DNA of 44,891 bases from Planctomycetales bacterium (GCA_020427265.1 JAGQOS010000001.1:1-44891); one strand, 5' to 3'; counted from the stretch's first letter, positions 3,023 through 29,144 are shown. Program-made: numbers and translations. Notes: generated by a model not told the origin, from the letters alone.

Positions 3023-3049
3023 TTTGACGCCGAATTGAGGATCTCACGG

Positions 3050-3745
3050 ATGGAACTGCAGAAACTGAAATGCGGCCGACTCGAACCGCTCGGAGGCATA
3101 CTGTTTGCCGCTCTTTTGGCAGGTGTTGGCTTCTTGATCTTGCGCGTCGCTCCTGCTGAAAAGACCATGGGCGAAGTACAACGCATTGTGTACGTTCACG
3201 TCGCCGTTGCGACCTTTGGAATGTTCGGCATGCTACTGGCTGCCGCCGCAGGGCTCGCGCTGCTCGTTCGGCGCGACCAAGGCTGGGATCACTGGGGACG
3301 TGCCGCTGCGGAAGTCGGCTGGCTTTGCTCGACGCTGACCTTGATCACCGGATCACTTTGGGCTCACGAGGCCTGGAACACTTGGTGGACCTGGGAGCCT
3401 CGGCTCACGTCGTCGCTGATTCTGTGGACAATCTATGCCGGCTATTTTCTGCTGCGATCAAGTATCGACAACGATCGCCAACAGGCGCGCGTTTGCGCCA
3501 TCTTGGCGATCGTCGGTGCGTTGGACATTCCCATCATCACGATGGCGACACGCTGGTTCCGCGGCATGCACCCTGTATCACCAGAAATGGATCCTACGAT
3601 GCGCGGCGTTCTGCTGGCGAGCATGGTGTCGCTTACTTGCTTCTTTGCCTACCTTCTCGTGCGTCGCAGTGTGCAATTGCAAATGGGCCACCGTATTCGT
3701 GCGCTGCGGCAACGGCTGCTGTTTGAACAAGGCGTTCGCATGTAA
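3050..3745 (+). CDS. ccmC: Haem exporter / haem-handling protein CcmC
   Basis: WWD motif 'WAHEAWNTWWTWEPRLTSSL' in a polytopic membrane protein. The ATG at 3050 is preceded by AGGA at 3038-3041. The listed start at 3035 is a TTG five codons upstream. Confidence 0.88.
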   Translation: MELQKLKCGRLEPLGGILFAALLAGVGFLILRVAPAEKTMGEVQRIVYVHVAVATFGMFGMLLAAAAGLALLVRRDQGWDHWGRAAAEVGWLCSTLTLITGSLWAHEAWNTWWTWEPRLTSSLILWTIYAGYFLLRSSIDNDRQQARVCAILAIVGALDIPIITMATRWFRGMHPVSPEMDPTMRGVLLASMVSLTCFFAYLLVRRSVQLQMGHRIRALRQRLLFEQGVRM

Positions 3746-3815
3746 CCGCGCGTTGCCTAACGGTAAGGCCGGCGATGTAAAACGGACACGACCTACAAGC
3801 GTTGATAAAGGAATC

Positions 3816-3998
3816 ATGGTCATGGAGTTTCTTACAATTGCCTTTGGCGTGGTTGGCGGCAGCCTTGCGCTTTATGTTGGCTGGCTGGGCGTACACCAAC
3901 GTCACCTCGCTCGACAGTTACACGAGTTGGAATCGCAGCTCGATGCCACGACCGAAACGAATCATTCGCACTCGCAACAGACGCGACGAGCGGCATAA
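3816..3998 (+). CDS. ccmD: Small single-TM protein, CcmD-like by size and position
   Basis: The ATG at 3816 is preceded by AAAGGAA. The 60-aa product 'MVMEFLTIAFGVVGGSLALYVGWLGV...' has one hydrophobic helix followed by a charged tail and lies directly after ccmC. The rest of the listed ORF (3435..) overlaps ccmC out of frame. Confidence 0.55.
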   Translation: MVMEFLTIAFGVVGGSLALYVGWLGVHQRHLARQLHELESQLDATTETNHSHSQQTRRAA

Positions 3999-4042
3999 GC
4001 CGACAGCTAGCGTGGCTGGCTACGGGCCCAAGGGAGTGAAAT

Positions 4043-5062
4043 ATGCCGATTCGATTCGCTTTTCTCGTTATTCTCGGCGTGGCGACAATGGCCGCCGCCG
4101 CGGAACGCGGTGTAGTTCAGGGACGTGTTCTCAACGGCTCGCAGGTCAACGAACCGATTCCCAACGCCCAGGTGATCTTGCGACTTGTGGAGCCCAACGG
4201 GCTTGTCCCTGTTGGTGAAACAACAACCGACGAGTCGGGTCGGTTTCGTTTCGAAAAGCTGCCCGCCGATCTCGGGCTATCGTTCGTTCCCGGCGCCAAC
4301 TGGAACGGCATCCACTACCCGGGCAAGCGCGTACGACTGATTCCCATCGCACCCGAAGCCGACGTAACGATCGTTGCTCACGACTGTGTGGCGGAACCGA
4401 ATCCGCTGATTGCGAAACGCCATTCGATGGAAGTCGAAAGCGACGAAGGGATGCTGCGCGTTACCGAGACCATTCTCATAGAGAATCCGTCGCTTCGATC
4501 CTACGTCGGCAAGAGCGAAGAGGAGGGAGCGTCGCCCGTAACTCTACGGCTTTCGTTGCCGCCCGACTTCGCCAAGGTCGTTTTTGCCGAGGAGTTTTAC
4601 GGACGCCAATTTACGCTTGGCGAAACGACCCTGCAGACCGACATGCCTTGGACGCCGGGCAAACGCGAGGTGAAGTTCACCTATTACCTTCCCTTCGAAA
4701 GCCGCCGCTATCTAATCGAACGAACCTTAGATTTGCCGGTGGATCAGTTTTCGCTCCGTTTGCCTGGCGAATTGGCCAACGATGCCCAGTGCAACCTGGA
4801 CTCGATTTCCGAGAATCGCGAACATTCCGTCGAATTCCGCGCTCAAGGGAGCAATCTGGAACAGGGATTTGTCGTGAAACTTGAGCTAGGCGATCTCCCG
4901 CTCGCCTGGACAACGTATGCGCGCTGGGTAGCCTTGACCTTGCTTGCGTCTCTGATCACCGCACTGACAATCGGGTTGCGGCTACGCAAGGTCGCCGGAT
5001 CGTATGGGGCGAAAGAGCCCGAGCAGATCGAGCCTGCTACGCCCGAGCAACGGGCAGCTTAA
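4043..5062 (+). CDS. Exported, C-terminally TM-anchored protein with an N-terminal carboxypeptidase-regulatory-like (CarboxypepD_reg) fold motif; function unknown
   Basis: RBS AAGGGAG lies 7 nt upstream of the ATG. Signal peptide 'MPIRFAFLVILGVATMAAAAE'. The stretch 'GRVLNG...NAQVILRLVEPNG...TTTDESGRFRFEKLP' is typical of CarboxypepD_reg beta-sandwiches. C-terminal helix 'WVALTLLASLITALTIGLRL'. Confidence 0.7.
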   Translation: MPIRFAFLVILGVATMAAAAERGVVQGRVLNGSQVNEPIPNAQVILRLVEPNGLVPVGETTTDESGRFRFEKLPADLGLSFVPGANWNGIHYPGKRVRLIPIAPEADVTIVAHDCVAEPNPLIAKRHSMEVESDEGMLRVTETILIENPSLRSYVGKSEEEGASPVTLRLSLPPDFAKVVFAEEFYGRQFTLGETTLQTDMPWTPGKREVKFTYYLPFESRRYLIERTLDLPVDQFSLRLPGELANDAQCNLDSISENREHSVEFRAQGSNLEQGFVVKLELGDLPLAWTTYARWVALTLLASLITALTIGLRLRKVAGSYGAKEPEQIEPATPEQRAA

Positions 5063-5641
5063 CATTCCTCAAGTGTGCGGCGATCGCTCGATTCCTGCCC
5101 GAGAAACGACCCTGGGCATGTTCCGATGGTGCTCGTCTGTGCCAACTGTGCGGATTTGCTCACCATATCGACATGCCGTTGCTCCAGAATGACTGCCATT
5201 CGGCAGAACGTCTCGGACAATCGCAGGCGGAACATTAGTCGGGTTTAGTGCTTCTAGATCTCGATTTGCGCGCGAACGTGATGCAACGTGCCGTGAGTGA
5301 CTTTAATAAAAACCATAACTTGTCCAAAACCTAGCCGGTGTTGGTCCGGCATTTGCAGCAGGGGCGCTGGGACTTGATCCTGGACTTACGTGTTGGGTCA
5401 CGGCTCGAGCTACGGCGCCGGGCGACGTGGCGATTGCCGGCGCTCCGCCGAAACTGCGGTCATGCCCACGAGCCGTGGAATCGAAGCGCTTGCGAAAGGG
5501 TAACGTATCATTCAATATGGAGCGTAACTTTGGGTCTTGGCGAATTCGACCGAAGTCGTAATTTGCGTTTTGCTTCGGTTGCTCGATAGTGCAGCAAAAT
5601 ATACAAACAAGTATCGGTAATCCATTGCGGGAGAAAACATC

Positions 5642-6172
5642 ATGAAGATTCGACACCTGGGGCCCAAGTCGCGGTCGGGACTGCGCGTCATCCTCGGTAT
5701 TAGTTGCCTGGCGATTCTCGTATCGTCAGCCGTCTCCCAGTCTCTAGGCGCCGAGCCGCTGGCCTCGCCACCCGAAGGACAAACCTACATTGGTTCGAAA
5801 AAGTGTGCGGCATGTCACTTCGATCAATACCTGAAATGGCGTCAGACGAAGCACGCCAAAGGTTTCGAAATCTTGCCGGCTAAATACCAGGCGGATACAA
5901 GCTGCTTGGCGTGCCACTCCACTGGACATGGGCAGGATACCGGATTCAAAGACATCGGCACCACACCCGACTTGGCGGGAACCTCATGCGAGGCATGTCA
6001 TGGCCCGGGTAGCAAGCACGGCGAAATCGCCAAAGGTTTCGGCACGGCGAAACTCTCGGGCGAAGACGAAGCCTATGTGCGCAGCACGATTCACTTGATC
6101 ATCCAAGGGAATGCGTGCGTCAAATGCCATACGGCAAACGGCCACAAGGATCATCCGCCGTACGACAAATAG
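5642..6172 (+). CDS. Periplasmic tetrahaem c-type cytochrome (cytochrome c554-like family)
   Basis: RBS GGGAG lies 8 nt upstream. There is a signal peptide and four CXXCH sites (CAACH, CLACH, CEACH, CVKCH) in 176 aa. The stretch 'YIGSKKCAACHFDQYLKWRQTKHA' is typical of c554-type multihaem proteins. Confidence 0.88.
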   Translation: MKIRHLGPKSRSGLRVILGISCLAILVSSAVSQSLGAEPLASPPEGQTYIGSKKCAACHFDQYLKWRQTKHAKGFEILPAKYQADTSCLACHSTGHGQDTGFKDIGTTPDLAGTSCEACHGPGSKHGEIAKGFGTAKLSGEDEAYVRSTIHLIIQGNACVKCHTANGHKDHPPYDK

Positions 6173-6481
6173 CGCACTTTTGCGATCGCGCGGTTGAGAT
6201 CCCGGTTTGTTATTCCGCTTCGCTTCGCCACACGCGTTGCGCAGGAAGACGCGAGGCGTGATTGGGCCGTGCTCATCGCTTGCCCTGGCGCTAGGGTTGT
6301 GCAACGGCGAGGTCTGCGTGTCGCCGGTTCGGCATTGGAGCTCAGCTTGGTCTTGGGCGCACGAACCGAACCAACTATATTTTGGATTCCATGACACGAT
6401 CGGCTGGGACTGCGTTTCGCCTCGATCACGAAATGCAATTCAGCAGATCGACAGGCTCGCCGCATACCAAGGATCGTCTCC

Positions 6482-8221
6482 ATGTCGGATCAAGACAAGA
6501 AGCCGGAATCAACCGAAGAAAATCCATCGCCCGCACCCAGCCGCAAGCGGCGCTGGGCGGTACGCCTGTTCATCGCGTTTGCGATCTTGTCGGTCCTCGG
6601 GGCAAGCGTCCTCGGCGTGGCGGAACATGAAACGAGCAAGGCCGATTTCTGCGCCTCGTGCCATATCATGGAGCCATATTACGCGTCCTGGTCCGCCGAC
6701 CTGCATGGCAGCAAACTCGATGTCGCTTGCGTCGAATGTCATTATGCGCCGGGCGAACGTACGACGATCAAAGCCAAGTTCCGCGGCTTGAGCCAGGTTA
6801 CCAGTTACTTTAGCGGCCGCTACGGATCTGGGAGACCCCGCGCTTATGTGAGCAACCTAAGCTGCCTGACAGCCAAGTGCCACGGCGACAAGAAGTTCAT
6901 GGACAAAGCCATTCAGGTGGGCACGGTCAAGTTCAGCCACGCCAAGCACTTGGCGCGCACGGAGGAAATGGAGCAGCCTCAGCAAGCGCGGCTCGAAGAA
7001 TTGCAAAAACAATTGCGCGATACGCTAGGTGAGGAACATTTCAACGAATTACAGATCCTGGGATCGATCGCCGGGTCGGCGAAGCCGCGCTACGATGCCA
7101 TGGTGGCTCAATGCGAACAATGGGAATCGACCGTGGATCGCGAAACACTCGTCGAGTACTCGCAGCTCCTGCATCGCGACGTACGCATTACACAGTTAAA
7201 TGATCTGCAGTGCACGAATTGCCACGCCTACAGCTCTCCGAACCAGGAAGCATTCAACGGCAAGACCGGGCATCACTTCCAAGTTGCAACGACGACCTGT
7301 TACACGTGTCACTTCAACAACGAAGACTACAATACGGGCACAAGCACGTGCCTCTCCTGCCATACTCCGCCGCAAGGCGAGATTCTTGTCCACGCGGAGA
7401 AGGAGCTAAAAGGCGGCGAAGACAACGATGATGCGGCCGCGGCGAAGCCGGTCATGATGAATCATACCGACATGCTGGCTCGCAAAGTGGCGTGCATTTC
7501 CTGCCATGCCGACGCAATCCAACACGATGCAACCGTAACACGCCGCGACTGCGAGCGCTGCCACGACCGTCCCGAGTTTTTCAAGGACTGGAAAGAGCCT
7601 TTCACGCTCGACCTCGTCAAGCACTATCACAGCGTGCACGTTGAACGGCAAAAGGCCAAGTGCCAGGATTGCCATGCCGAAATTCAGCACAAGCTTGTTC
7701 GCGAGGAAGGGAACTTCCTTACTTCCGCCCTTGCCGATTGCGCGCGCTGCCATCCGAACCATCATACCGAACAAGTCGGTTTGCTACTGGGCCACAGCGG
7801 CAGCGGCGCCGTGCAAGGCGAGCCCAACTTGATGTTCGGATCACGAACGAATTGCAGTGGCTGCCATACAGAACTGACCGACGATTTGCACGGCGGCATT
7901 GTCAAGGCGACCGAACAGTCGTGCATTGCGTGTCATGGCGACAAGCACGAAGACACGTTTATGAAATGGAAGCTCGGCCTGGAACTGGTCATGGAAGACG
8001 CCGACAGCGCCTATGCCAACGCCAAGAAGTTGCTCGACGAAAAAACTGAACTGCCGGCTGAAGTACGCGACGAAGCCGCCAAGCTGATACGCGATGCCGA
8101 GGCCGATCTGCGGATGGTAAAAGTCGGCAACGGACTGCACAACATCACGTTTGCGATGGAACTGCTCGACTCGGTAACCACGCGTTGCCGCCAAGCGGCG
8201 ACGCTACTCTCCAAGGAGTAG
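6482..8221 (+). CDS. Membrane-anchored NapC/NirT/NrfH-like multihaem cytochrome c (11 CXXCH plus 1 CX4CH); putative quinol dehydrogenase
   Basis: N-terminal TM helix 'WAVRLFIAFAILSVLGASVLGVA' followed by the NrfH-type first haem site 'CASCHIM' and 'VACVECHYAPGE'. Further sites are CTNCH, CYTCH, CLSCH, CISCH, CERCH, CQDCH, CARCH, CSGCH and CIACH, plus 'CLTAKCH' at 6863-6883. The C-terminal ~100 aa are helical and charged. Confidence 0.88.
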   Translation: MSDQDKKPESTEENPSPAPSRKRRWAVRLFIAFAILSVLGASVLGVAEHETSKADFCASCHIMEPYYASWSADLHGSKLDVACVECHYAPGERTTIKAKFRGLSQVTSYFSGRYGSGRPRAYVSNLSCLTAKCHGDKKFMDKAIQVGTVKFSHAKHLARTEEMEQPQQARLEELQKQLRDTLGEEHFNELQILGSIAGSAKPRYDAMVAQCEQWESTVDRETLVEYSQLLHRDVRITQLNDLQCTNCHAYSSPNQEAFNGKTGHHFQVATTTCYTCHFNNEDYNTGTSTCLSCHTPPQGEILVHAEKELKGGEDNDDAAAAKPVMMNHTDMLARKVACISCHADAIQHDATVTRRDCERCHDRPEFFKDWKEPFTLDLVKHYHSVHVERQKAKCQDCHAEIQHKLVREEGNFLTSALADCARCHPNHHTEQVGLLLGHSGSGAVQGEPNLMFGSRTNCSGCHTELTDDLHGGIVKATEQSCIACHGDKHEDTFMKWKLGLELVMEDADSAYANAKKLLDEKTELPAEVRDEAAKLIRDAEADLRMVKVGNGLHNITFAMELLDSVTTRCRQAATLLSKE

Positions 8222-8230
8222 CATCGCGAC

Positions 8231-10699
8231 TTAGAACGCGTAGCTGAGTCCGCCCAGGAACATGTGGGCCGTGCCGCTGTTGATGCTCGTCGACTTGTCT
8301 TCGTAGTCGAAGTAGACGTAGCGGAAGTAGGTATCCATGCTCCGCATCACCTGATAGTCGACACCGGCATGGAAGCGCGTGGTGTTCACACGCACGTCGG
8401 CGAGCCCGGGCAGGGCCGACCAATCGGCGCCGGCCGGCGAGGCGGGCACCGAAAAGGCGTTGACACCGCGATTCCACTCCACGCCACCGACCAGTTGCAG
8501 GCAAGGCGTCCAGGCGTAGTTGGCGCCCAGGCTTAGCAGGTAATTCTCACCGCCGTACGACCAGCGGGTCTGCTCGGTAACGGCAGGATTGTTGCGGAAC
8601 GAAATCTCGATATCCTGATCAATCCAGTTCGAGAAGTACGCATAGGCTCCGGTGAAAGAGAGCCGGTTCGTGGGTGCATACCACAATGTTCCCATCAACG
8701 GATAGCTTTCTTCGTCGAAGTTGATGCCCTCGGAGTCGTGCCAACTGTCCTGAATGCCAATCTGGACCGTCGCCATCAGGTTCGATGCGGGCGTCCAAGT
8801 ACCGCCGAGTTCGACCAGATGAACCTGTTCCGGCTGGTTCGAGTTGAACGTGCCCGTACCGTCGTGGATCGATCGGATCGGCATATCGACGAACCGGCCG
8901 CGGTAGCGGACAAATCCGTTGAACGTTTGCGAGAAACGGTATTTCGGCGAGAACTCGATCTGATGGGCCACGGTATCGGGCTGTACAAACGTGCCGTTAA
9001 GCGGTGCATCGTATTCGGCATAGTCGCGGTTGATCGACGAGTACTCGTAGCCGGAAACCAGCGAGAAGCGGTCGCGCGGACTTCCGCACGGGCTCCATTG
9101 ACTCTTCACACCCGCGCGAACTCGGTTGTAGTCGACCTGCCGCACAACGGCCCCCGGTTCGCTCTGAGCGGGATTGCCGGTGACTGTGCCCCAGGGCGCC
9201 GTGGTGAGATAGTCGGTGGGCAAATCGTAGTTTTCGTCGTCCATTTTGACGAAACCGATCAGCTTCATGCGTTCGAAGCTGGTGTTGATCAGTCGCACAT
9301 CGTAGCCGGCGAACTCCCGGCGTGTATTACGAAATTCGTTCTTTGTGTCGCCAAGGTACATGTTGGCGTAGAGTTGATTGCAGTCGTTCAACTGGGCGCT
9401 GACCTTCAAGCGATCGACCTGCGTGAAGCTCTCGGGCACGTAGGCATAGCGGTACAGGTCACCGTCGACGTCGTTAGCGGGCGAATAGCTGAAGTGCGAG
9501 TAGACGCGCGTCGCAGCGCCATCGGCTTGTTCAAAGCTGCGCATGGTGCGCGAGTATTCGACCGTAAGGTTGTCGTAGCTAGCTTCGATCACCGGCTGAA
9601 CTTCCATCGTGAGCCAGTCGATCTTCTGGCGTTGGCTTTGCAAGTGGCAGGTGTTGTCGGTCGGTCCGCCGCCGCCCACGTTGTAGCAATGCCCCACGGC
9701 GTTCGCTTGACGTTCGCCGAACTTGCGCATGCCCCAGGTGTTCAGCCGCCATTTGATGTTGTCCGTCAGCTTGCCCTGAAAGCGCGCGTTTAGCTGTTCG
9801 ACGCGAATCGCATAATCTTGTCCGGTGTTCAGGTCTTCCGTCACCACGGCGTCGGCCGGCCCGGGGGGTACCGCGCCGTTGAGGTCGGCGCCGGCGAGCA
9901 AGTCGTGATCCAGACGACGGAGGAAGCGATTGAATTTGACTTTGGCGGTCAAGCGCGGTCCAAAGTAATAGGCACGCGCGTCGGTAGCTTCGTTGTCCAT
10001 GCCGGTCAGTGTGAAGTCGAGCGTGCGTACGCCGTCGCTGCGCATGCCGTCGACGTCCCAGAACGGCGACGACGTGAGTTCCTGAAATTCGCCGACCTTT
10101 TCCAGGTCGCCGTCGGTCGATACGCCCCAATACCCGAAGCGAACTATGGGGCCGTCGAGGTATTCAGTGGGGTCATAAATGGGACCGCAGTCGCAGGCGT
10201 TTACATCGCAATAGCAGCCGTCGCATTGCCATTCGCCACAATTGCCGGTTTGATGGCATCCGCCGCTGTTGCCGGCGCAGGGATGGAGGCAGTACTCGCT
10301 AGTCGTGCAGCAGGAGCAATCGCCGGGGCCATCGAAACGACAGATGTTCGGGGCGCAGCAACAGGAATTGTCGAGGCAGAAACGCACCGGGTTGCAGCAA
10401 TCGCCGCAACCGCTGTCGCACAAATCGCAACTCGCGCCACAGGCTTGATCGCAGGGAGCCGCGTTGTCGCAGGGCGCGGACAGAATTCCGGCCGTCTGCT
10501 GCGCTTCGTATTGCACAGCCCCAGCCTGTTCGCCTGGCGCGCCACCCGATTCGAAAGCCACGGCGGCGTGGTCCGCGGATTCAGCAGCCGGTTTGTCGCG
10601 GAAACCGATCCAGCTTCCTGTCGCACCCGATGTCTGGGCATCCAGCGGGGCGGCGACGGTCGGCACGAGGGCAATGGCCAAGAAGTATATGCGTTTCAT
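8231..10699 (-). CDS. Large outer-membrane beta-barrel protein with Cys-rich N-terminal module (candidate MtrB/PioB-like porin)
   Basis: The start is taken at ATG 10699, which gives the signal peptide 'MKRIYFLAIALVPTVAAPLDAQ'; the listed start at 10780 is a TTG. There are 25 Cys in residues encoded at 10187-10471. The remaining ~640 aa have the alternating hydrophobic/aromatic pattern of beta-strands and end in the OMP-type terminus '...FLGGLSYAF'. Confidence 0.8.
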   Translation of the reverse strand: MKRIYFLAIALVPTVAAPLDAQTSGATGSWIGFRDKPAAESADHAAVAFESGGAPGEQAGAVQYEAQQTAGILSAPCDNAAPCDQACGASCDLCDSGCGDCCNPVRFCLDNSCCCAPNICRFDGPGDCSCCTTSEYCLHPCAGNSGGCHQTGNCGEWQCDGCYCDVNACDCGPIYDPTEYLDGPIVRFGYWGVSTDGDLEKVGEFQELTSSPFWDVDGMRSDGVRTLDFTLTGMDNEATDARAYYFGPRLTAKVKFNRFLRRLDHDLLAGADLNGAVPPGPADAVVTEDLNTGQDYAIRVEQLNARFQGKLTDNIKWRLNTWGMRKFGERQANAVGHCYNVGGGGPTDNTCHLQSQRQKIDWLTMEVQPVIEASYDNLTVEYSRTMRSFEQADGAATRVYSHFSYSPANDVDGDLYRYAYVPESFTQVDRLKVSAQLNDCNQLYANMYLGDTKNEFRNTRREFAGYDVRLINTSFERMKLIGFVKMDDENYDLPTDYLTTAPWGTVTGNPAQSEPGAVVRQVDYNRVRAGVKSQWSPCGSPRDRFSLVSGYEYSSINRDYAEYDAPLNGTFVQPDTVAHQIEFSPKYRFSQTFNGFVRYRGRFVDMPIRSIHDGTGTFNSNQPEQVHLVELGGTWTPASNLMATVQIGIQDSWHDSEGINFDEESYPLMGTLWYAPTNRLSFTGAYAYFSNWIDQDIEISFRNNPAVTEQTRWSYGGENYLLSLGANYAWTPCLQLVGGVEWNRGVNAFSVPASPAGADWSALPGLADVRVNTTRFHAGVDYQVMRSMDTYFRYVYFDYEDKSTSINSGTAHMFLGGLSYAF

Positions 10700-10797
10700 G
10701 GTCCTAGATTCCGATTTACTTTCGCGGGTCTCGGCGCAGCGGGGATTGCGCCAAGGGTAAATCTCTGTCGTGGGTTTCAAACAAACATCGCAGGTAT

Positions 10798-10817
10798 CCG
10801 GGCGCTCTCGCGCCCGG
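10798..10817 (-). other. GC-rich intercistronic stem-loop between the 14-haem cytochrome gene and the barrel gene
   Basis: CCGGGCGC-tctc-GCGCCCGG forms a perfect 8-bp stem that begins 11 nt after the cytochrome stop. No U-tract follows immediately on the minus strand, so it is not a clean intrinsic terminator. Confidence 0.4.
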
Positions 10818-10828
10818 ACTCGCCTTGG

Positions 10829-12316
10829 TTACCGAGCAAACGATCTCGGCAAGTGCGGCGAGGGCAGGTCACTGCCGTGTATCTGGGCATGGCATTGTGT
10901 GCAGTCGCTGTAGAACGCCGCCTGCATACTCGGCGTTGTTCCAACATCGCCCACGCCGGCGCCTGTGTGCGGACCAAAGGTTGGCCCCACGCGATGCCCG
11001 GTGTGACATCGCAAACACAGGAAGGTCGCAGGTTGGTGCAGCAAATTATTGGCTACTGTGCCGTGCGGGTTATGACATATTCCGCAGTCTTCTGTCACGG
11101 GAGGATGGGAGTACACAAAGGGTCCCTGCTTTTCAGCGTGGCACTTGTAACAAAGTTGATTCGTAGTCGCCTCTTTCAAGTTGCCGTGCGCCTGTCCGTG
11201 GCCATCGTGACAATCGGAGCAGACCAACTTTCCTTCCTTGATCGGATGATGCGAAGGCATAGACGTTTCGGCGTAGATCTTGGGATGGCAACCGAAGCAC
11301 ACGTTCGGCTCGTCGACCGACATCGGCATCCGCGGCGCCCGTCGTACGTTCGTGTGGCTAATGTTTACGACATCGGCCACGCCGGTTTTCGGATGGGGGT
11401 TGTGACAGTCGGTACACGCAACGCCGTGCAGGCTGTGCGACGAGGAGTGCCAGGCCATCGTAGGCGCGTCTTTATGGCATTCCAAACACAATTGCGTACG
11501 CGACTCATGACGAATCTTGCCGTGGGGATCATGGCAAGTGGCGCAGGTGAACGAGTTCTGGCCGAGCATTTGATGCGGATGCGCGACGTGCTCGTACTGC
11601 TCCATGTCGCCGTGGCAGCGATAGCAGATTTGCGGCGAGATCGCGCCCATGTGGTGCGAATTGGCTCGCAGGGTCGCCATGTCTGGAGCGGGGGTCTCCA
11701 TTTGCAGGCTCACGAGCTGATGCGGCGGCAGGCGACGAATTTCGGCGCTCTCCAAGTCCGTCGTAGCAGGTGTTCCTGGTGGAACGTTGTAATGGCCCGT
11801 ATGGCAATCGGTACAAGCCACGCCGTTGTGGGCATGCACCGAATTGCGCCAGCGCCCGCCGGGAGCACACTGGTCCTCTTGATGGCACTTCAGGCAGAGT
11901 TCCGACTTTTGTGCCGGCGGCAGCGTCTTGAAGCTAAGGATCGAACCAGGCTCTTTGCCGCGCGTTTGGAGGTGGCGGCTACCCGGTCCATGGCACTGCT
12001 CGCACGATTGGCCACGGTGAATGTTGTGCTGAAACGTCTTCACATAGGTCTCGTGGCAGACCATGCACAACGTGTCGTCGTTGACATATTCGGCATTTTC
12101 AATCTGCGGCACAGGCACATGGAGCGCCGCCAATTGCACCTCTTGGAACTGCCCCTGAGGCTTTGGCCAATACGCCGACTTCGTGTCGACTTCGCCACGT
12201 TCGGCCTTGGTGGAAGACGATTTGCACGAAGCAAATGGCAGCACGCAAACCGCCGCAAAAAGCCAAACCAGACCTTGCCGGATACGAAATCCCGGAACCC
12301 GAATGGTAGTCCGCAC
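10829..12316 (-). CDS. 14-haem c-type cytochrome, probable lipoprotein (MtrA/DmsE-like modules)
   Basis: GTG start at 12316 with GGAGG 7 nt upstream. Signal peptide with a lipobox-like 'LPFASC'. There are 14 CXXCH sites (CMVCH, CEQCH, CLKCH, CTDCH, CYRCH, CATCH, CLECH, CTDCH, CFGCH, CSDCH, CYKCH, CGICH, CLRCH, CTQCH). The C-terminal stretch 'GPFVYSHPPVTEDCGICHNPHGT...LCLRCH' resembles periplasmic deca-/multihaem electron carriers. Confidence 0.9.
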   Translation of the reverse strand: MRTTIRVPGFRIRQGLVWLFAAVCVLPFASCKSSSTKAERGEVDTKSAYWPKPQGQFQEVQLAALHVPVPQIENAEYVNDDTLCMVCHETYVKTFQHNIHRGQSCEQCHGPGSRHLQTRGKEPGSILSFKTLPPAQKSELCLKCHQEDQCAPGGRWRNSVHAHNGVACTDCHTGHYNVPPGTPATTDLESAEIRRLPPHQLVSLQMETPAPDMATLRANSHHMGAISPQICYRCHGDMEQYEHVAHPHQMLGQNSFTCATCHDPHGKIRHESRTQLCLECHKDAPTMAWHSSSHSLHGVACTDCHNPHPKTGVADVVNISHTNVRRAPRMPMSVDEPNVCFGCHPKIYAETSMPSHHPIKEGKLVCSDCHDGHGQAHGNLKEATTNQLCYKCHAEKQGPFVYSHPPVTEDCGICHNPHGTVANNLLHQPATFLCLRCHTGHRVGPTFGPHTGAGVGDVGTTPSMQAAFYSDCTQCHAQIHGSDLPSPHLPRSFAR

Positions 12317-12858
12317 AACTAGACCTCCGTGTCAAACCGCTCAAGGAACAAGCGGCGTGTAATTCACCGTATCGACACATCAACGGCACAAGTCCCCTCC
12401 TGGGTCTTGGCCTCTGCATCGCTCGACCATGCCATTTGGCACGTCCGCGCCACGAGAGATGGTTCACTCTGCCAAGCGTCCACGCTAGCTAGCTCGGGCT
12501 GGCAAGAGAAACCATGTTTTTGTGTCCATCATCGATTCTCGACCTTTCTCGGCCGCGTTTTGAATGAAAATCGCCGGAGCTGCAATCATTTGCCAAGACT
12601 GCATGCAGATCGTCGTGCTGCACACTCCCGGCGCGCGGTACCGCACAAAAAATGGGTAGCTTCCGCTGCGTTGCACACCGGAGCCGGTGGACCGACTTAT
12701 GCGTACGGCGAACGAGCAAGTTAGAGGCAGACTCAGCAAGGTCGGCGCACCTCGCCTAGATTACCTCGCTCTGAAAAGAGACGTCGTGGCGCAACTGCGC
12801 CAGGGTGGACGGCTCGCAAACGCCAGCAACAGGAGGCCAGCTTAGAGTGCCCTTTGAC

Positions 12859-14697
12859 CTATGCCCGCATCGACGCCATCTGAGCTTCAATGGCTGTATT
12901 TGGCCACGATGGCAGTTGTGCAACATGGCTACGAACCAACGCGATGATGGCAAACGTCCATTGAAGAACCAACCCGACCACAACCATTCCCGTGCCGCCG
13001 GCGCCAAATCCGTACGAGTGCGCGCCGGCGGCGAGTACGAAGTTCACGCCGTACCAGGTCATGACCACAAGCGAGAAGCAAACGATCGAGGCCGCGGCCA
13101 AGCCTTTCTCGCCAACCATGCCAGCACTACGTGCATGCAAAAGGGCGAGATAACCGAGCAACGTAATGAGCGACCAAACCTCCTTCGGATCCCAGGCCCA
13201 GAACCGCCCCCAGGCGGCATCGGCCCAGACCGCCCCAAAGCCGAGCCCCAAGACAAGCAGCAAGACACCCAGTCGAGTTGTGAGCAGTGTTGCCTGGCAT
13301 AGCGCGCGCAACTTTGTGTATTCGGACCTGTTTCGCCAATGCGAATACAAGGTGAGGTTCGCCAGCGTTGCCCCCAATGCAAAGGCTGCGAAGCTTAGCG
13401 AAACCGCCAAGACATGCGCTACCAGGAGAGAATTGCTGCGCAACACCGGGTCGAGCGGATTCATCCGCGGATCGAAGACGGCTGGCGATCCGTCGGCGGC
13501 GGCCAGCAAGATCGCTGTGGTCATCGAGGCAGCAACCAGTATTGCCTTGTTGCGATATCTCCACTGTAGCGCCAATGCCAACAAAGCGATTCCACCCGCT
13601 ACCAGGAGAACGGTCTCGAACATGTTTGCCGCGGGAATTCGATTGGCGATCATGCCTCGCATCGCGAGTCCCGCGAAAACAGCCATCAGGCCGATGGCGT
13701 ACGCGATTAGAGCACTAGCAAAGAACGAACCGCGTCGGCGCCGATGATGAACCGAGAACAAACAACAGGCGCCGAAAAAGCTGATCCAGGCCAAACGAAA
13801 GGGTCGCCAATGATTGTAGGCGACTTCGAGCTGCATGGCCGATTCTTTCGGCGCACCGGAATACTTTTTTCCGATCTGCCCGAACGCCGCAGCCAAGTCG
13901 GACGAGGCTTGATGGAAGTCGGACGTGTGGCCAGCTAGAAACGCTTGGCGGGCCTGTTGCAAGTGTTTCTGAATTTTTCGCAGCTCACCGGAAGGGTCGG
14001 TATCATCGTCGAACTTCTGCAACAGGAGTTGTCCGCAAGTCAACCATCGTTGAGGCTCGACTTCATCGGAAGGCAACCATTTGGCAAGCCGTCCCATTCT
14101 TGCTCGCTGATAAGTCCAGTAGCGATCAGCCAGTTCGATTGCTTCCACTTCCACGCGAGTCAATTCTTCGCCTTTCGACTCGGCATCGATCAACCGTTTT
14201 GCCCAGGCATCGAAACTCAGGGCCTTGTCGGTGCGCGTGTCGTACACTTGAATCTTGTTTAGGCGTTCTGCAGAAACCAACAATTCCTTCGCCGGCAGTG
14301 TAAGTCGTTCTCTTAGCTGCGCATCTTCGATGGGCAGTAACGGCATTTTGTCCCATTTGTCAGCCTGGTGAAATTGAAAATAGATCGGACACCAGTCCTT
14401 GAGCTCCAGCATGCGGTCGCGTTGCGAATGGTCCCAACCCTGCCACTCGAAGAGCATGGTCAAATAGGCCGCGGTCGCGTCGAGGCGCACGGACGACTGC
14501 GGATCGCGCAAGCCATGGGAGTTCGAGGTTCGCCACAGTGTCTCTTGTGCGAACGTGTCGAGCGGTTTGAAACGTCCGTCGGACAAAACGCAAATCGGCC
14601 GCCAGGCTTGCACGTCGACTCGCCTGTCCGCCGCCTTGGCGCTGGTCGCACCGATGATCAGACCCGTGTATATCGCTGCCGAAATCCAACGTGACAC
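12859..14697 (-). CDS. ccsA: System II cytochrome c biogenesis protein CcsA/ResC with long N-terminal periplasmic extension
   Basis: GTG start at 14697 with GGAAGGAG 6 nt upstream. WWD motif 'WGRFWAWDPKEVWSL' sits in the C-terminal polytopic half. The N-terminal ~300 aa are soluble and contain 'DGRFKPLDTFAQETL'. The gene lies 27 nt downstream of resB. Confidence 0.9.
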   Translation of the reverse strand: MSRWISAAIYTGLIIGATSAKAADRRVDVQAWRPICVLSDGRFKPLDTFAQETLWRTSNSHGLRDPQSSVRLDATAAYLTMLFEWQGWDHSQRDRMLELKDWCPIYFQFHQADKWDKMPLLPIEDAQLRERLTLPAKELLVSAERLNKIQVYDTRTDKALSFDAWAKRLIDAESKGEELTRVEVEAIELADRYWTYQRARMGRLAKWLPSDEVEPQRWLTCGQLLLQKFDDDTDPSGELRKIQKHLQQARQAFLAGHTSDFHQASSDLAAAFGQIGKKYSGAPKESAMQLEVAYNHWRPFRLAWISFFGACCLFSVHHRRRRGSFFASALIAYAIGLMAVFAGLAMRGMIANRIPAANMFETVLLVAGGIALLALALQWRYRNKAILVAASMTTAILLAAADGSPAVFDPRMNPLDPVLRSNSLLVAHVLAVSLSFAAFALGATLANLTLYSHWRNRSEYTKLRALCQATLLTTRLGVLLLVLGLGFGAVWADAAWGRFWAWDPKEVWSLITLLGYLALLHARSAGMVGEKGLAAASIVCFSLVVMTWYGVNFVLAAGAHSYGFGAGGTGMVVVGLVLQWTFAIIALVRSHVAQLPSWPNTAIEAQMASMRA

Positions 14698-14724
14698 AAG
14701 ATGCTCCTTCCTTCGCGTCTACGA

Positions 14725-16605
14725 TCAGGCCGCTTCTCGCGATTTGCTCCAAGTTTCGTCCGGGTGTTTCCATTCTTCCGTCGCCGTCGAAATTCCTGCT
14801 GCTTCGATTCTCGCACGAACGCGTGCGTTGGCATCCTTGCCACCAGCAATCGAGCGACGGACGAACATGACGGCAATGCCACAGAAAATCATGACACAGC
14901 CCGCCTGTTTCAGCGGCCGGCCGGGATCGAATGTCACCGTAAATCGCGACGCTTGCGCGTTGTGCCTGCTTTCGCCGACTCCCGCCTGGCAGATGGTGAA
15001 ATGTTCATGTCGAAGCGGCCGGTTCGTGCCTATCTCCGCGTCGTCAAGCGGCTTTCCATCGCGACCGACAAGCTGCAGCCGACTTGCATACTCCGCATCA
15101 CCGGCGCCGTCTAGGCCCTGGCGGCGGTCGAAATCGGTAAGTTTCAAGTTGAACCCCAGCGGTTCCGTGCCATTTCCGTAACTTAAAGAGAGCGATCCAT
15201 CGGATGTTTCAATCGTGCCGTGGCTGCGCAATGGCACATTTCGCTGCAACCACAGTTCGTGCGTGGTTCCCGCCACTCGAAGTTCGACCAGAACGGCAGG
15301 CTCGGAGTTTTTCACGCGTTTGCCAAAGGCCGGCTGAAATGACACCTTCTCTTTGGCAAATGGGAAAAACTCTTCGATTTCAACTTGGAAATTGTTCGAC
15401 ACTTCGATGCGTCCGCCGGCCTGCACCTGGCCATGAAACGTGCGTTTCCCGTTTTGACATGTGCGAGCGAGCAATTCGCCATTCAAAGCGCGTAGCAATT
15501 CGACCGAAGTGCCCGCATCCAAGGCGGGATGTTCGTAGCGAAATTTAACCGGGCAGTCGCGTGGGTAAACGCCATCGAGATTCAGCAGCGGATCTTTGGC
15601 GAAGGCGATTTGTCGAAAGGGCGTAACCTCGCCCGGCATGTGCACCTGGAGTTCGACCATCGGATTGCCCGGTTGCTCACCTTTGGTGACGAAACTGCCT
15701 GCCTGACTTGGCCGGGCATTGGGAAGGTATTGGACAATCTCGATGGTCACGCCCGAGTCGTCGAGTGCAATTCGCTTTTCGAGAAACTCGTGGACGGAAA
15801 CCTGCTTGACCATATCTTGATAGTAGATCGTAAGACTTCCCTGTTCGGCGAGCGATTTCTCTTCGACATCTCGGAAGTTCTCCAACATTGCGTCGCTCGT
15901 GGCTTGCTCCAACTGAATGCGTAGCGGCCCGACCATAAGCGCGTTTCCGTAGCGACCCGCGCTGAGCCAATGGCTGGCGACCTTTTTGCCATCGGGCCCT
16001 AGGACTTTGAATGTGAGATAGGGACCGCCGGCGCGGGCGGAATCGGGGGCCCAATCGTGCCGCAGCGAGGCATGACGCAAATAACGCACGATTCGCGCTC
16101 CGACTCCATCGACTTCGCCAACCTCGAGTTCGTGGCCGGCAGTCCAATCAACCGGACCACCGTCGAAGGCAAACTTGAATGGCCGTTCGTCGGGCTTGCC
16201 AACCCACGACGCGGTAATCTGGCTGACGGCAGGCACAACGAATTCGCCGGCCTCCTGGTCTTCGGCCAGTTCCAGCACTCCCTGCTTGCCCTGCAGGAAC
16301 GAAATCAGCATGCCGAGCAGCAGCACCAAGAGCCCGGCATGCGTGAACAGCAATCCGATCGGTGGTCGTTGAAGCGAAAAACGTCGGACCGCTCCACAAG
16401 CGATGTTGACGGCAAGCACCGCCCATAGCCCGCAGAACCAGGGCTGCTCGTATACAAACCATCGGACGTAAGCGCTGCCGTGAATCGCTTCGAGAAACGA
16501 CGTGACGGCGAGCACGGTTGCTATCAATACTAGCAAAGCTACGGCGAGCTGCAGCGACCCCAAGAACGACAATACACGGAAAAATGCGTGGCGGGATTTC
16601 GACAC
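14725..16605 (-). CDS. ccsB: System II cytochrome c biogenesis protein ResB/CcsB
   Basis: ResB-like N-terminus 'FFRVLSFLGSLQLAVALLVLIATVLAVTSF...WFCGLWAVLAVNIACGAVRRF', a large periplasmic domain and a C-terminal TM helix. I place the start at GTG 16605, with AAGGG 7 nt upstream; TTG 16611 is an alternative. The upstream part of the listed ORF (to 16917) is not protein-like and overlaps a transposase relic on the other strand. Confidence 0.8.
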   Translation of the reverse strand: MSKSRHAFFRVLSFLGSLQLAVALLVLIATVLAVTSFLEAIHGSAYVRWFVYEQPWFCGLWAVLAVNIACGAVRRFSLQRPPIGLLFTHAGLLVLLLGMLISFLQGKQGVLELAEDQEAGEFVVPAVSQITASWVGKPDERPFKFAFDGGPVDWTAGHELEVGEVDGVGARIVRYLRHASLRHDWAPDSARAGGPYLTFKVLGPDGKKVASHWLSAGRYGNALMVGPLRIQLEQATSDAMLENFRDVEEKSLAEQGSLTIYYQDMVKQVSVHEFLEKRIALDDSGVTIEIVQYLPNARPSQAGSFVTKGEQPGNPMVELQVHMPGEVTPFRQIAFAKDPLLNLDGVYPRDCPVKFRYEHPALDAGTSVELLRALNGELLARTCQNGKRTFHGQVQAGGRIEVSNNFQVEIEEFFPFAKEKVSFQPAFGKRVKNSEPAVLVELRVAGTTHELWLQRNVPLRSHGTIETSDGSLSLSYGNGTEPLGFNLKLTDFDRRQGLDGAGDAEYASRLQLVGRDGKPLDDAEIGTNRPLRHEHFTICQAGVGESRHNAQASRFTVTFDPGRPLKQAGCVMIFCGIAVMFVRRSIAGGKDANARVRARIEAAGISTATEEWKHPDETWSKSREAA

Positions 16606-16726
16606 TATCAAGCCCTTTGATTGAATCCACCGCGAACAAAGCGACCATGCTCTGAAAAAACGCGGAATATACGTCGGCCCGAATACCGGTTCCCGATTGC
16701 ATGCGTCTGCGACCTGGCAGAGCCCA

Positions 16727-16890
16727 CGGGCGGGGCGAATCGTCTTCGATGTCCCGCCGTGGGTCAAGAGCAGCCAATTCGCCGCCTGGAAAGCATCAAC
16801 AACAAGATCAAAGCCGTCGAACGAATGGTCTACGGATACCGGGACGAAGACGACGACTTCCAGAAAATCCGTCAGGCCTTTCCCAGAAAT
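16727..16890 (+). pseudogene. C-terminal relic of an ISL3-family (DDE_Tnp_ISL3) transposase, frameshifted and truncated
   Basis: One frame reads '...PIRRLESINNKIKAVERMVYGYRDEDDDFQKIRQAFP'. This matches the ISL3 C-terminal signature (E-x-x-N-N-K-I-K-x3-R-x2-Y-G-[FY]-R-D...F). Upstream, '...GRIVFDVPPWVKSSQ' continues in a different frame. Only ~55 of the ~400 expected residues are present, and I saw no inverted repeats. Confidence 0.6.
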
Positions 16891-16901
16891 ACCGGACGAA
16901 C

Positions 16902-16938
16902 AAAAAAAGCGGGTCACCCGCCGAAGCAGGTGACCCGC
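16902..16938 (-). terminator. Rho-independent terminator downstream of the transglutaminase-like gene
   Basis: On the minus strand, GCGGGTCACC-(10-nt loop)-GGTGACCCGC forms a 10-bp perfect stem followed by TTTTTTT. It lies 43 nt after the stop at 16981. Confidence 0.85.
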
Positions 16939-16980
16939 ATAATCAACCCTTGCGGGCAGTTGTCGATTCGCGAGTGCGAC

Positions 16981-18987
16981 TCAGTTCGTCCGTTCCATGC
17001 CGATCCAGTAGTCGATCTCTTCGAAGAAGACCCAGAACATTCCGTCGTCGTTCGAGATCTTGCGGGTCGTTGTCGTGCCATCTTCGAGTGTAATGCGAAT
17101 CGTATCACCCTCGAGCGTGAACGTTCCCGACTCGCGTGTTTCTCGGACCGGGCTCGACGGACCGGAAACTTTCATGTAACCGGCATACTGGCCGTTGGCC
17201 GTTAGTACGGCGACCAACTCCAGTTGCGTCCCTTCGATTTCACCGCGGTAGAGCCAAGATCCGATGAACGGCGAGTTGATCGAATTGGGCGTCGAGGTTG
17301 TCGTGGTCGAAGCCGTTTGCACGGGCACGTTGCGATTGTTGTTGACCAACTGCGTGCTTTCGTTGCGGCGGGGCTCGAACGAATAACCGAGATCCTTCAT
17401 GAAGCTCACGGAAACAGCAGGCAAGTCGAGGCTATGCACGCCCTGGTTCCGCAATGCCCGGATGTCGACGATAATCGACGTGCCATTCTGAGCTTCGCGA
17501 AGTTCCTCCGTGCCCTTCTTAACTGCTTCGAGAAACGATGCGTGGCCGATCATCGTTGCCTCGACACCGATCAGCTTGCCGCTGGGCAATTGCACGGCCG
17601 GAAAGCAGTGGCCAGGAACAACCACCAACGAAGGACGCAGTCCCACGGCTTCGCAGGTGCTGGCGAACAGCACACCGAGGTCGACGCATGTTCCGGCACG
17701 ATTCTGGAGCACGTCGCGTCCCGACTTGATGTGTTGGCCGTTTTTGCCGTCACGAAGCAAACCGGGTGGTGTTTGGTAAGCGATTTGGCTGTCACCCATG
17801 AAGCTAAACAGAGCGTCCAGGAACTTGGCGGCTTCGTCGTCGCTCGAAGAAGCGGCCGCACCGCCGGAAAGCCGGCTCACGCCACCAGCAAGTTGCTGAA
17901 TCACCGGATCGTTGGCGTTAACCATCGAACCGAGCACAAGTTGAATATTGTCGAACCGATCAGCGAAGCTGACCGCCTTGTCGGTGGCCAGGCTCGAAAA
18001 GATCGCTTCGTTACGAGAAAGGATCGTCATCCGGCGAACGTCGCTCTCTTGCACCAGGCGGCCGTCGGCCTGACGGTATTCAATCTCCACTTCCAGGCTT
18101 GCTGGACGGGTGCCAGTGAGCTTGGCGAGTTTTTCGAGATCGTAGATCGGGAAAAACGGATCGACCACGGTTTGCCCGGGGAGCACAACTTCGCTGCGAG
18201 CCCAACGGCTCCAACTGCTGTGTTCGGCAATCCGGAAGCGAACGCGGTAGTCGGTGATTTCTGAGTCACCAGTATTGCGGAAGATGCTGCGAGCGGTCCA
18301 CATTTGCGAGAACTTTTCATTGCCGTAGATCTTGGCCAGGCAGCTCATTACGTCTTTCCGCGTATCGACAGCGAAGTCGGAACCTACGCCGTTGCCCTCG
18401 TTTGTTTGGGCATCCAGATCGTAGGTCAGTTCGGTCATGCGGCTGTCGATGGCGGCTTCGTGAGCGCCTTCGGGAAGCTGCAATTTGATGATCAGCGTTC
18501 CCAGGCCCAACGCCGTATTGGCGGTCGAGCTGAGAATCGCCTGACGATCATCAATCGTGATCAGATCGAGCGACTGATCGTCGATGGCGACCTTCCACTC
18601 GCCTTCATGCTCGATGCGAGCCAGGCCTCGCTGTAAATATTCGATTCGCACGGTGCTATCGCCATCGTCAAAGCGACCGTCGATGTTTTCCAATTGCGCC
18701 CAATGCTTACCGGCGCCAAGTTGCCGGAGTAGTACGGCCATGTTGGGCGAGCTGGTCTTTAGTTCGGTATAGAGATTCGTCGTCAGGCGAATGTCGAGCG
18801 TGATGTTCGCATCGCCCACTTCATTGAGCGTAATGGTGCGCGTCATTTTGACCACGGGACCCGATTGGGCCAGGGCCGTGCTGGCCGTCGTGGCCACGAT
18901 CATGACCAACAGCAGAATAAGACAGAACTGAATTCCCTTCACATCCGTGAGCCGACCCATCATCCGAAAGCGTGCTTGTTGAACCAT
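16981..18987 (-). CDS. Exported transglutaminase-like (papain-fold Cys-His-Asp/Glu) protein
   Basis: ATG at 18987 with GGGGGA 7 nt upstream; the listed start at 19002 is a TTG. Signal-anchor 'IQFCLILLLVMIVATTASTALAQ'. Transglutaminase-core pattern 'RAGTCVDLGVLFASTCEAVGLRPSLVVVPGHCFPAV...IGVEAT' supplies the Cys, His and acidic residue. Confidence 0.75.
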   Translation of the reverse strand: MVQQARFRMMGRLTDVKGIQFCLILLLVMIVATTASTALAQSGPVVKMTRTITLNEVGDANITLDIRLTTNLYTELKTSSPNMAVLLRQLGAGKHWAQLENIDGRFDDGDSTVRIEYLQRGLARIEHEGEWKVAIDDQSLDLITIDDRQAILSSTANTALGLGTLIIKLQLPEGAHEAAIDSRMTELTYDLDAQTNEGNGVGSDFAVDTRKDVMSCLAKIYGNEKFSQMWTARSIFRNTGDSEITDYRVRFRIAEHSSWSRWARSEVVLPGQTVVDPFFPIYDLEKLAKLTGTRPASLEVEIEYRQADGRLVQESDVRRMTILSRNEAIFSSLATDKAVSFADRFDNIQLVLGSMVNANDPVIQQLAGGVSRLSGGAAASSSDDEAAKFLDALFSFMGDSQIAYQTPPGLLRDGKNGQHIKSGRDVLQNRAGTCVDLGVLFASTCEAVGLRPSLVVVPGHCFPAVQLPSGKLIGVEATMIGHASFLEAVKKGTEELREAQNGTSIIVDIRALRNQGVHSLDLPAVSVSFMKDLGYSFEPRRNESTQLVNNNRNVPVQTASTTTTSTPNSINSPFIGSWLYRGEIEGTQLELVAVLTANGQYAGYMKVSGPSSPVRETRESGTFTLEGDTIRITLEDGTTTTRKISNDDGMFWVFFEEIDYWIGMERTN

Positions 18988-19293
18988 TTCCAATTCCCCC
19001 AAGAATAAAGTGAAACATGTCTGGTTTGCCCGACTTCCGTGTCTGACTTGTGCTTCCTGCTGGTAGGCAATCCGTTTTCATGCAACTTGGCGGACAAAAA
19101 ACTCGGAAAATAATTCAAGAAGATTGATGGATCCGAATCTGGCGCAGTAGCTGCCGGTTTACCGGTCGATTTATGTAGAGTTGGCGCTCCAATTCGGCAA
19201 TTTCCGCGGTCGCATACGACGTTTGCGTACGTTCCATGCTTCGCAACGAGCGAGTCAAAGCAACATCTTGCGACCATTCCGCTTGCAGCGCGC

Positions 19294-25422: not shown

Positions 25423-25499
25423 CGCGCTAATCTAAAGAATGGAGCGTATGGCTGAGATTCTCTCGAAATAATCGCTGCATCGCCGCATTCGGAGGCATC

Positions 25500-26093: not shown

Positions 26094-26469
26094 GAAAGAT
26101 CGCTCCCTGGCCTAATCGCCGAGAATGAGTGGAATCGCACCGCGTGCCTGGCGGGCAAGGCGTCGCAATTTCTTAGTTTACACGCGGAAATTGCAGATTG
26201 CCACTGCCAGTGAGCATAGCGGCCGCGAACCCGACATTACGGGGCCGATGCGGCACTTTTCGTACAGGCCGCAAAGTTTGCCTAACCCGAACGCCGTAGG
26301 ACCAAAACATTCGTTAAGCTTTGACTCTGTTTGCTGATGTTGCTGGAAACTCGTGGCGATCTTCCGTCTTAACTCCGATAACGTGAACAATCGCAGCCGT
26401 CGGCTCTAAGCCGGCCGCGAGGCAGTACACACACTCAATCATGCAACGCCGATTCACGGAGGATTCGGG

Positions 26470-29058: not shown

Positions 29059-29110
29059 TCGAGAGATGGGGCGAATCGCCCCGTTACATGAATTTTTCAT
29101 GATCGAGCGA

Positions 29111-29144
29111 AGTGCCCTGCCGGTTGGCAGGGCACTTCTTTTTT
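29111..29144 (+). terminator. Rho-independent terminator of the TonB-dependent receptor gene
   Basis: AGTGCCCTGCC-ggtt-GGCAGGGCACT forms an 11-bp perfect stem followed by TCTTTTTT. Confidence 0.92.

Follow-up and report, generated by a model that had tools for sequence, protein, structure and literature searches.

A probable MtrAB/OmcKL-type electron conduit in a planctomycete genome and a candidate haem site on its outer-membrane barrel

Does a planctomycete carry the parts needed to exchange electrons with the outside of the cell? The question is raised by positions 5642-16605 of a 44,891-nucleotide stretch from Planctomycetales bacterium (GCA_020427265.1, JAGQOS010000001.1:1-44891), hereafter the window, in which a first-pass annotation had placed a porin-cytochrome conduit. 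All six genes of that annotation were found at the positions and with the haem counts it had given. The three cytochromes together carry 30 predicted haems (4 + 12 + 14), and no further multihaem open reading frame (ORF) was found in the cluster. Homology, predicted structure and synteny support the conduit interpretation, and the region is probably an outer-membrane electron conduit of the MtrAB/OmcKL type, together with inner-membrane and periplasmic feeders and its own maturation genes. In addition, a motif on the barrel raises the more tentative proposal that the barrel itself is a cytochrome.

The 14-haem cytochrome and its barrel partner

The 14-haem cytochrome (10829-12316, minus strand) is a predicted lipoprotein of 495 residues with 14 CXXCH sites and a lipobox (...PFAS followed by C). 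Searches with hidden Markov models, as the first-pass annotation had proposed, showed that it passes TIGR03508 of the DmsE/MtrA family (252.1 bits, cut-off 192.2) and narrowly misses NF041028 of the GSU2203/OmcK family (310.8 bits, cut-off 325). Its sole match in the PDB is MtrA of the solved Mtr complex (6r2q_A, E 4.9e-38). Judged by these matches, the protein is a member of the MtrA/DmsE family and not a subunit of a reductase with a soluble substrate, a possibility that the annotation had raised against its own reading. Haems 2-4 and 9-14 align with haems of MtrA. Between the two matched segments is a stretch that does not align and holds haems 5-8; we read it as a four-haem insert between the two halves of an MtrA-like decahaem wire. 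The TIGR03508 family is expected to hold ten CXXCH in about 300-330 residues; the 14 found here in 495 residues are not a matter of chance, because their positions are conserved across homologues. All 14 sites and the lipobox are kept in the related loci L001-L006, the L006 gene being split by a frameshift. At that locus (8372-9864) the gene is called as two pieces of 199 and 282 residues. Several other family members in public assemblies are also split or truncated by apparent frameshifts; gene calls in metagenome-assembled genomes (MAGs) under-report the family.

The barrel gene (8231-10699, minus strand) begins 129 nucleotides downstream of the cytochrome gene on the same strand, which bears out the gene order and the length of about 820 residues described earlier. 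It encodes 822 residues from MKRIYFL, with the ORF open to 10780, and the product starts with a signal peptide, is beta-rich in its C-terminal region and closes with ...SYAF, the aromatic ending of a C-terminal beta-signal. An AlphaFold model built on a 58-sequence alignment has a mean pLDDT (predicted local distance difference test) of 70.8; residues 185-822 are mostly above 80 and the first ~182 residues are of low confidence. The model revealed 26 transmembrane strands, counted from the DSSP string, the same number as in MtrB; this count bears indirectly on the annotation's condition of a pore that can house a haem chain. Short turns of 2-9 residues occupy one side of the barrel, and the long loops all lie on the opposite side. 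In a Foldseek search against the PDB the top match is MtrB (6r2q_B, E 2.7e-18, TM score 0.70 normalised to MtrB), followed nine orders of magnitude behind by TonB-dependent receptors (E ~1e-9, TM score ~0.3).

The barrel also matches NF041027, the 'GSU2204 family CXXCH-containing (seleno)protein' (175 bits, E 2e-51), as do 58/58 aligned members of its family. By sequence it is clearly homologous to the GSU2204/OmcL family and falls outside the equivalog. The family comprises 568 clusters at 50% identity with E <= 1e-3, 200 of them with E <= 1e-30, and its members carry the label 'hypothetical protein' in public sources. There is no in-frame TGA from the ATG at 10699 to the stop at 8231, and the barrel is thus without selenocysteine. 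Truncation at a selenocysteine codon was considered for three short CXXCH-type members on long contigs (P0221, P0238, P0243) and rejected: their C-termini look like frameshift read-through, so they are uninformative on selenocysteine. The N-terminal region holds a Cys-rich domain (residues 77-171, 10187-10471, minus strand) with 25 Cys in 95 residues, within the low-confidence part of the model. A looser form of its pattern (CCTT..HPC.C..GNC) is common to the close clade, where the number of Cys ranges from 0 to 25 and some members lack the domain; it is absent from all distant family members. A disulfide knot, a metal or Fe-S site and a plug are all conceivable for the domain.

Survey of the barrel neighbourhood covered 75 non-redundant related loci, of which 58 retain DNA upstream of the barrel and 17 end at a contig edge. 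In 58/58 of the loci with upstream DNA, the gene immediately upstream of the barrel, on its strand, is a homologue of the 14-haem cytochrome. Together with the MtrB fold and the NF041027 match, this synteny speaks against a non-redox porin family that is not linked to cytochromes, the outcome by which the annotation itself would have been refuted. The named homologues all come from MAGs of Planctomycetia, Pirellulales or Planctomycetaceae. Recurring neighbours of the pair are a NapC-like 11-12-haem protein, a c554-like protein, ResB/CcsA (often fused, ~1200 residues) and ccmEFABC, as well as a CbcL-like fusion of multihaem cytochrome and cytochrome b and Rieske/cytochrome b/multihaem genes. 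The last two, the CbcL-like fusion and the Rieske/cytochrome b/multihaem set, are not in the window. A Rieske/cytochrome b/multihaem set beside the barrel and a CbcL-like protein in which a ~10-haem cytochrome c is joined to the membrane part of a b-type cytochrome were seen at the P0015 locus, L006 (4914-8114), L001 (11741-14263) and L004 (806-2977). Locus L031 (5742 and 10001-11977) has two apparent barrel paralogues, one right after the 14-haem gene and the other about 4 kb downstream.

The closest sequence families for both partners are OmcK and OmcL of Geobacter sulfurreducens, which likewise form a two-gene unit of cytochrome and porin. OmcK (GSU2203) and OmcL (GSU2204) are both up-regulated on hematite and magnetite (PMC4070692), and the GSU2204 family is listed as an MtrB/PioB-family barrel in a review of selenoproteins (PMC13188914). 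An OmcKL porin:cytochrome conduit has been proposed in Geobacter and in the sulfate-reducing HotSeep-1/Seep-SRB2 partners of anaerobic methanotrophic (ANME) archaea (PMC10553843), and is biochemically uncharacterised (PMC10553843, PMC4070692). OmcL has a single haem-type motif at the position homologous to that of the window barrel. The window pair differs from OmcK/OmcL in scoring under the family cut-offs, in having 14 rather than 10 haems in the cytochrome and CX12CH rather than CXXCH in the porin, and in a barrel that lacks selenocysteine and has gained the N-terminal Cys-rich domain. Further differences are the planctomycete host and an island that adds NapC-like and c554-like genes and two maturation systems. 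With MtrAB of the Shewanella MtrCAB complex (PDB 6R2Q), and with MtoAB and PioAB of Fe(II) oxidisers, the pair shares the order of cytochrome then barrel, an MtrA homologue and the MtrB-like 26-strand fold; similar to MtoAB and PioAB, it has no MtrC partner. Compared with MtrAB, the barrel has no significant PDB sequence match to MtrB, and the cytochrome is lipid-anchored and has four more haems. The barrel also has a CXnCH motif, whereas MtrB, to our knowledge, has only an N-terminal CXXC.

Feeder cytochromes and maturation genes

The 12-haem cytochrome (6482-8221, plus strand; 579 residues) has a transmembrane helix at about residues 25-47 and matches PF03264 (NapC/NirT) over residues 27-112 (47.1 bits, cut-off 24.1). 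It shares this N-terminal anchor and domain with the NapC/NirT/NrfH quinol dehydrogenases and differs from them in having 12 haems instead of 4-5. Eleven of its sites are CXXCH and one is CX4CH (CLTAKCH, residue 128). The latter is probably a real twelfth haem site, since the 11 + 1 pattern was found again in 14 homologues and two others have 12 CXXCH instead. We propose that this protein is the link to the quinone pool. The 4-haem cytochrome (5642-6172, plus strand) has 176 residues, four CXXCH and a Sec signal peptide, and matches PF13435 Cytochrome_C554 (56 bits, cut-off 20.8). Its homologues occur in 19 related loci, and it is the proposed periplasmic shuttle. It also matches the C-terminal ~110 residues, the haem domain, of NF041198 'UshA-like (seleno)protein', indicating that the tetrahaem module is fused to a UshA-like selenoenzyme in other phyla.

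Upstream of the 14-haem gene on the minus strand lie two genes of System II cytochrome c maturation. The CcsA-type synthase subunit (12859-14697, minus strand) has 612 residues with a long N-terminal extension, the WAWDPKE (WWD) motif and a PF01578 match of 105.7 bits; its TIGR03144 score of 136.7 bits is under the equivalog cut-off of 187.6. The ResB/CcsB-type subunit (14725-~16605, minus strand) matches PF05140 with 51 bits and has candidate starts at GTG 16605 and TTG 16611. An intrinsic-terminator-like hairpin (16909-16938, minus strand), with a 13-bp stem of which 10 pairs are GC, followed by TTTTTTT, ends the upstream gene and marks the 5' boundary of the minus-strand unit. This strong terminator falls within the extended ResB ORF, and a start near 16605 is therefore favoured; the start is probably one of the two named codons.

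The earlier description of a resB-ccsA haem-lyase pair was correct as far as it went, as the pair is present, but the label understates the context because System I genes stand in the same island. These occupy 19-5062 (plus strand) and comprise ccmF, ccmB and ccmC (19-3745, identified by Pfam CcmF_C, CcmB and Cytochrom_C_asm) and a 339-residue CarboxypepD_reg-like membrane protein, which may be an uncharacterised System I accessory. The 339-residue protein follows ccmC also in L002, L006, L012, L026 and L051, and L069 has a homologue. A System I set flanks the cytochrome-barrel pair in L002, L006, L012, L026, L051, L060 and the P0015 locus, and the System II pair recurs beside it in related loci too. 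Anammox planctomycetes have System II only (PMC4222556).

Lyases dedicated to CX15CH and CXXCK motifs are known (PMC6976685), and ResB/CcsA was considered as a lyase dedicated to long CXnCH spacers on the barrel. This was not supported: ResB is adjacent also where n = 3 or 4, and some loci with long n have no ResB within 10 kb. Since ResB adjoins the pair when n = 3 or 4, neither maturation system can be assigned to the unusual motifs.

The barrel motif and the direction of electron flow

The barrel contains a CX12CH motif, CYNVGGGGPTDNTCH (residues 338-352; 9644-9688, minus strand), which is a candidate covalent haem site. Each family member carries a single motif of the form C-Xn-CH, in which n runs from 2 to about 31. 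In 47 diverse representatives conservation is 100% at C351, H352, Q358 and W362 and 94% at C338. The segment -CH[VL]xSQxQxIDW is fixed and the lone upstream Cys stands at varying distance from it; within the close clade HC...CH is invariant. The site is CXXCH in P0189, P0213, P0221, P0238, P0243, P0253, L048 and L076, CX3CH in L001, L035, L064 and P0185, CX4CH in P0141, P0147, P0186, L025, L031, L032 and L061, and CX5 to CX31 in the remaining members; the majority of the family falls within CX8-31CH. Among the full-length sequences examined, only P0004 has another CXXCH.

In-silico mutants were scored against NF041027. The native core gives 149.0 bits, and each of C338S (139.6), C351S (139.7) and H352A (139.3) lowers the score by 9.3-9.7 bits. 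The double mutant C338S+D348C, which creates CXXCH, restores it to 148.2 bits. These scores indicate that C338, C351 and H352 are three strongly conserved positions of the model, which accepts a spacing of 2 for the first Cys. The window CX12CH thus maps, in sequence, onto the CXXCH for which the GSU2204 family is named. In the model the long hairpin beta7-beta8 (315-340 / 349-375) bears the motif at its tip, which is the predicted extracellular loop 4 by strand parity from both termini. Judging from this conservation, the barrel may bind one covalent haem c, the 31st of the cluster, near its outer mouth at CX12CH.

Precedents exist for both features. MccA/SirA, with the lyases Wolinella CcsA1 and Shewanella SirEFG, shares a long Cys spacer in a haem c motif and maturation genes beside the substrate gene (PMC6976685). 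It differs in that the spacer of the window family is not fixed and the carrier is an outer-membrane barrel; moreover, a lyase specific for long spacers is unsupported here, given the adjacency of ResB/CcsA at short n. Cyc2 of Fe(II) oxidisers is, by description, an outer-membrane barrel with one proposed covalent haem c, and so a precedent for a barrel that bears haem. The Cyc2 barrel is small, of about 16 strands, has its CXXCH in an N-terminal domain and is not known to have a threaded multihaem partner, whereas the window motif lies in a loop of a 26-strand barrel with a 14-haem partner.

We propose the following path. The 12-haem NapC/NirT-type protein would give electrons to, or take them from, the quinone pool, and the 4-haem c554-like protein would carry them across the periplasm. 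The 14-haem lipoprotein, homologous to MtrA, would thread the 26-strand barrel, whose predicted fold is that of MtrB. As the conservation of the motif suggests, a haem on CX12CH in extracellular loop 4 could stand in for an MtrC-type outer cytochrome as the point where electrons enter or leave at the surface, and could swap electrons with the last haem of the threaded wire. In its full form the proposal is that an MtrB-type barrel is a c-type cytochrome with its haem held by thioether links on a CXnCH motif of variable spacer (2 to about 31) in an extracellular loop, replacing the MtrC-type cytochrome and forming with the 14-haem partner a 15-haem wire-in-pore that is widespread in uncultured Pirellulales-type Planctomycetota. 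We hold this full form tentatively, as a possibility somewhat short of even.

Several points weigh against these proposals. The barrel is under the curated cut-offs of PF11854 MtrB_PioB (17.7 versus 23 bits), the outcome of the MtrB/PioB search suggested by the first-pass annotation, and of NF041027 (175 versus 350 bits). The PF11854 match covers the C-terminal 140 residues only, and a precomputed match to this model exists in 2/120 barrel homologues. Searches of PDB sequences with the barrel, as a single sequence or as the 58-sequence family profile, gave no match; because the profile finds no MtrB there, the link to MtrB rests on the predicted structure with its mean pLDDT of 70.8. The 160-residue N-terminal region might also plug the pore. 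MtrA is not a lipoprotein, which makes the topology of the 14-haem lipoprotein uncertain. OmcK is predicted to be extracellular in the tables of PMC13194489 and PMC10553843. Conduit function in planctomycetes is itself read from homology, structure and synteny. As for the barrel haem, no sixth (distal) ligand is invariant, the best candidates being H265 (79%), H337 (79%) and M386 (81%), and C338 and C351 are cross-strand neighbours in the model hairpin, a classic disulfide geometry. The conduit might thus be real and the C...CH of the barrel a disulfide staple of beta7-beta8 or a His/Cys metal site, with the 14-haem protein as the sole carrier, as in MtrAB and MtoAB. Cys spacings of up to ~31, far past the usual CX2-4CH, and the pairing of H337 with H352 in the close clade would also fit such a motif. 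However, even in members whose identity to the window protein is as low as ~30%, the His after the second Cys is 100% conserved, just as it is in haem c sites; CXXCH, CX3CH and CX4CH occur at the same site, the first giving the Geobacter family its name; and long spacing has a precedent in the CX15CH haem site of MccA/SirA (PMC6976685). We rejected a symmetric HC...CH metal site, as H337 is replaced in distant members, and a 2His/2Cys site is not the conserved feature. We regard a motif without haem as an unlikely, though serious, alternative to the barrel haem.

The direction of flow is not fixed by the sequence. Outward flow, to Fe(III)/Mn(IV) oxides, humics or other extracellular acceptors, is mildly favoured over inward flow from Fe(II)/Mn(II), on account of the quinol-dehydrogenase-type partners and the expression data from Geobacter. 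An uptake conduit similar to MtoAB/PioAB would pass electrons from Fe(II)/Mn(II), minerals or partner cells to periplasmic cytochromes and on to an oxidase or, via a bc-type complex, the quinone pool. It would suit a cluster without an MtrC-type outer decahaem, as in MtoAB and PioAB, the Rieske/cytochrome b/multihaem genes that adjoin the barrel in two related loci, and the oxic or micro-oxic origin of homologues, one of them a TARA ocean sample. HotSeep-1 OmcKL has been proposed to draw electrons from ANME partners (PMC10553843), and clusters of Fe(II) oxidisers also hold CymA-type proteins (PMC5566968). On the other hand, the best-known role of NapC/NirT-type and CbcL-like proteins is that of quinol oxidases for outward extracellular electron transfer (PMC6295460), omcK and omcL of Geobacter respond to Fe(III) oxides (PMC4070692), the window has no oxidase or carbon-fixation genes, and no sequence feature is diagnostic of direction. 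We consider this specific uptake reading rather unlikely, and only a little more plausible than the haem-free motif. Much less probable still is a DmsEF-type conduit that feeds a surface terminal reductase, for example a molybdoenzyme for DMSO (dimethyl sulfoxide), selenium/tellurium or sulfur compounds, instead of minerals directly. The 14-haem cytochrome passes the DmsE-family model, OmcL of Geobacter is a selenoprotein (PMC13188914), the haem domain of the UshA-like selenoprotein is similar to the 4-haem protein, and a molybdopterin oxidoreductase fragment lies about 8 kb downstream in one related locus. Nevertheless, no reductase gene is present in the window and none is consistently linked across the 75 related loci; cytochromes and maturation genes make up all of the conserved partners.

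Surroundings of the locus and meaning for Planctomycetota

A long plus-strand ORF at 9818-12322 has no CXXCH at all, and we take it to be a shadow ORF opposite the minus-strand genes. No RNA family came up when 4500-17500 was scanned with Rfam, and a promoter scan gave nothing beyond the shuffled expectation. The window is planctomycete-like in that it encodes a PSCyt1 domain and a planctomycete-type extracytoplasmic function (ECF) sigma factor. Directly upstream of the cluster, at 16981-19002 (minus strand), is a secreted protein of 673 residues. It weakly matches the transglutaminase core and, in part, the first ~300 residues of the anti-phage protein ProA (73 bits, far under the cut-off). 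Farther on, 21529-32650 encodes a 1297-residue Ser/Thr kinase-AAA/NB-ARC-TPR protein, the ECF sigma factor, an 862-residue TonB-dependent receptor and a 1107-residue caspase(C14)-TPR protein. This stretch resembles a signalling or iron-uptake neighbourhood and is probably unrelated to the conduit, although its genes may bear on metal sensing.

The novelty in Planctomycetota that was suggested at first has to be tempered. Homologues of the cytochrome already bear the JGI name 'DmsE family decaheme c-type cytochrome', Planctomycetota MAGs have yielded porin-cytochrome genes in marker surveys of the FeGenie type (PMC10732223), Planctomycetes are among the members of PCC4 subgroup II (PMC5566968), and the OmcKL conduit had been proposed elsewhere (PMC10553843). 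Verrucomicrobia have an unrelated porin-multihaem system (PMC5615132). A search of the literature, itself incomplete, found no account of the planctomycete barrel family, of the 14-haem cytochrome paired with it or of the CXnCH motif with its variable spacer. What is new here is the conserved CXnCH motif on an MtrB/OmcL-type barrel; otherwise the conduit is of the OmcKL/MtrAB type.

Soils, sediments, marine particles and metal-oxide deposits hold abundant Pirellulales-type planctomycetes, which are mostly viewed as aerobic polymer degraders. A conserved Mtr/OmcKL-type conduit would let them respire minerals or humics, or take up electrons. If the barrel is indeed a cytochrome, supposedly ordinary aerobic heterotrophs from soils, sediments, groundwater and sea water would be capable of extracellular electron exchange, and the maturation of the barrel may explain why System I and System II are kept side by side. 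Through its CXnCH motif, the barrel lets one test whether a large porin can itself be a cytochrome, and the series of spacers is a natural resource on the tolerance of haem lyases. For a barrel family now labelled hypothetical, these results supply a functional hypothesis.

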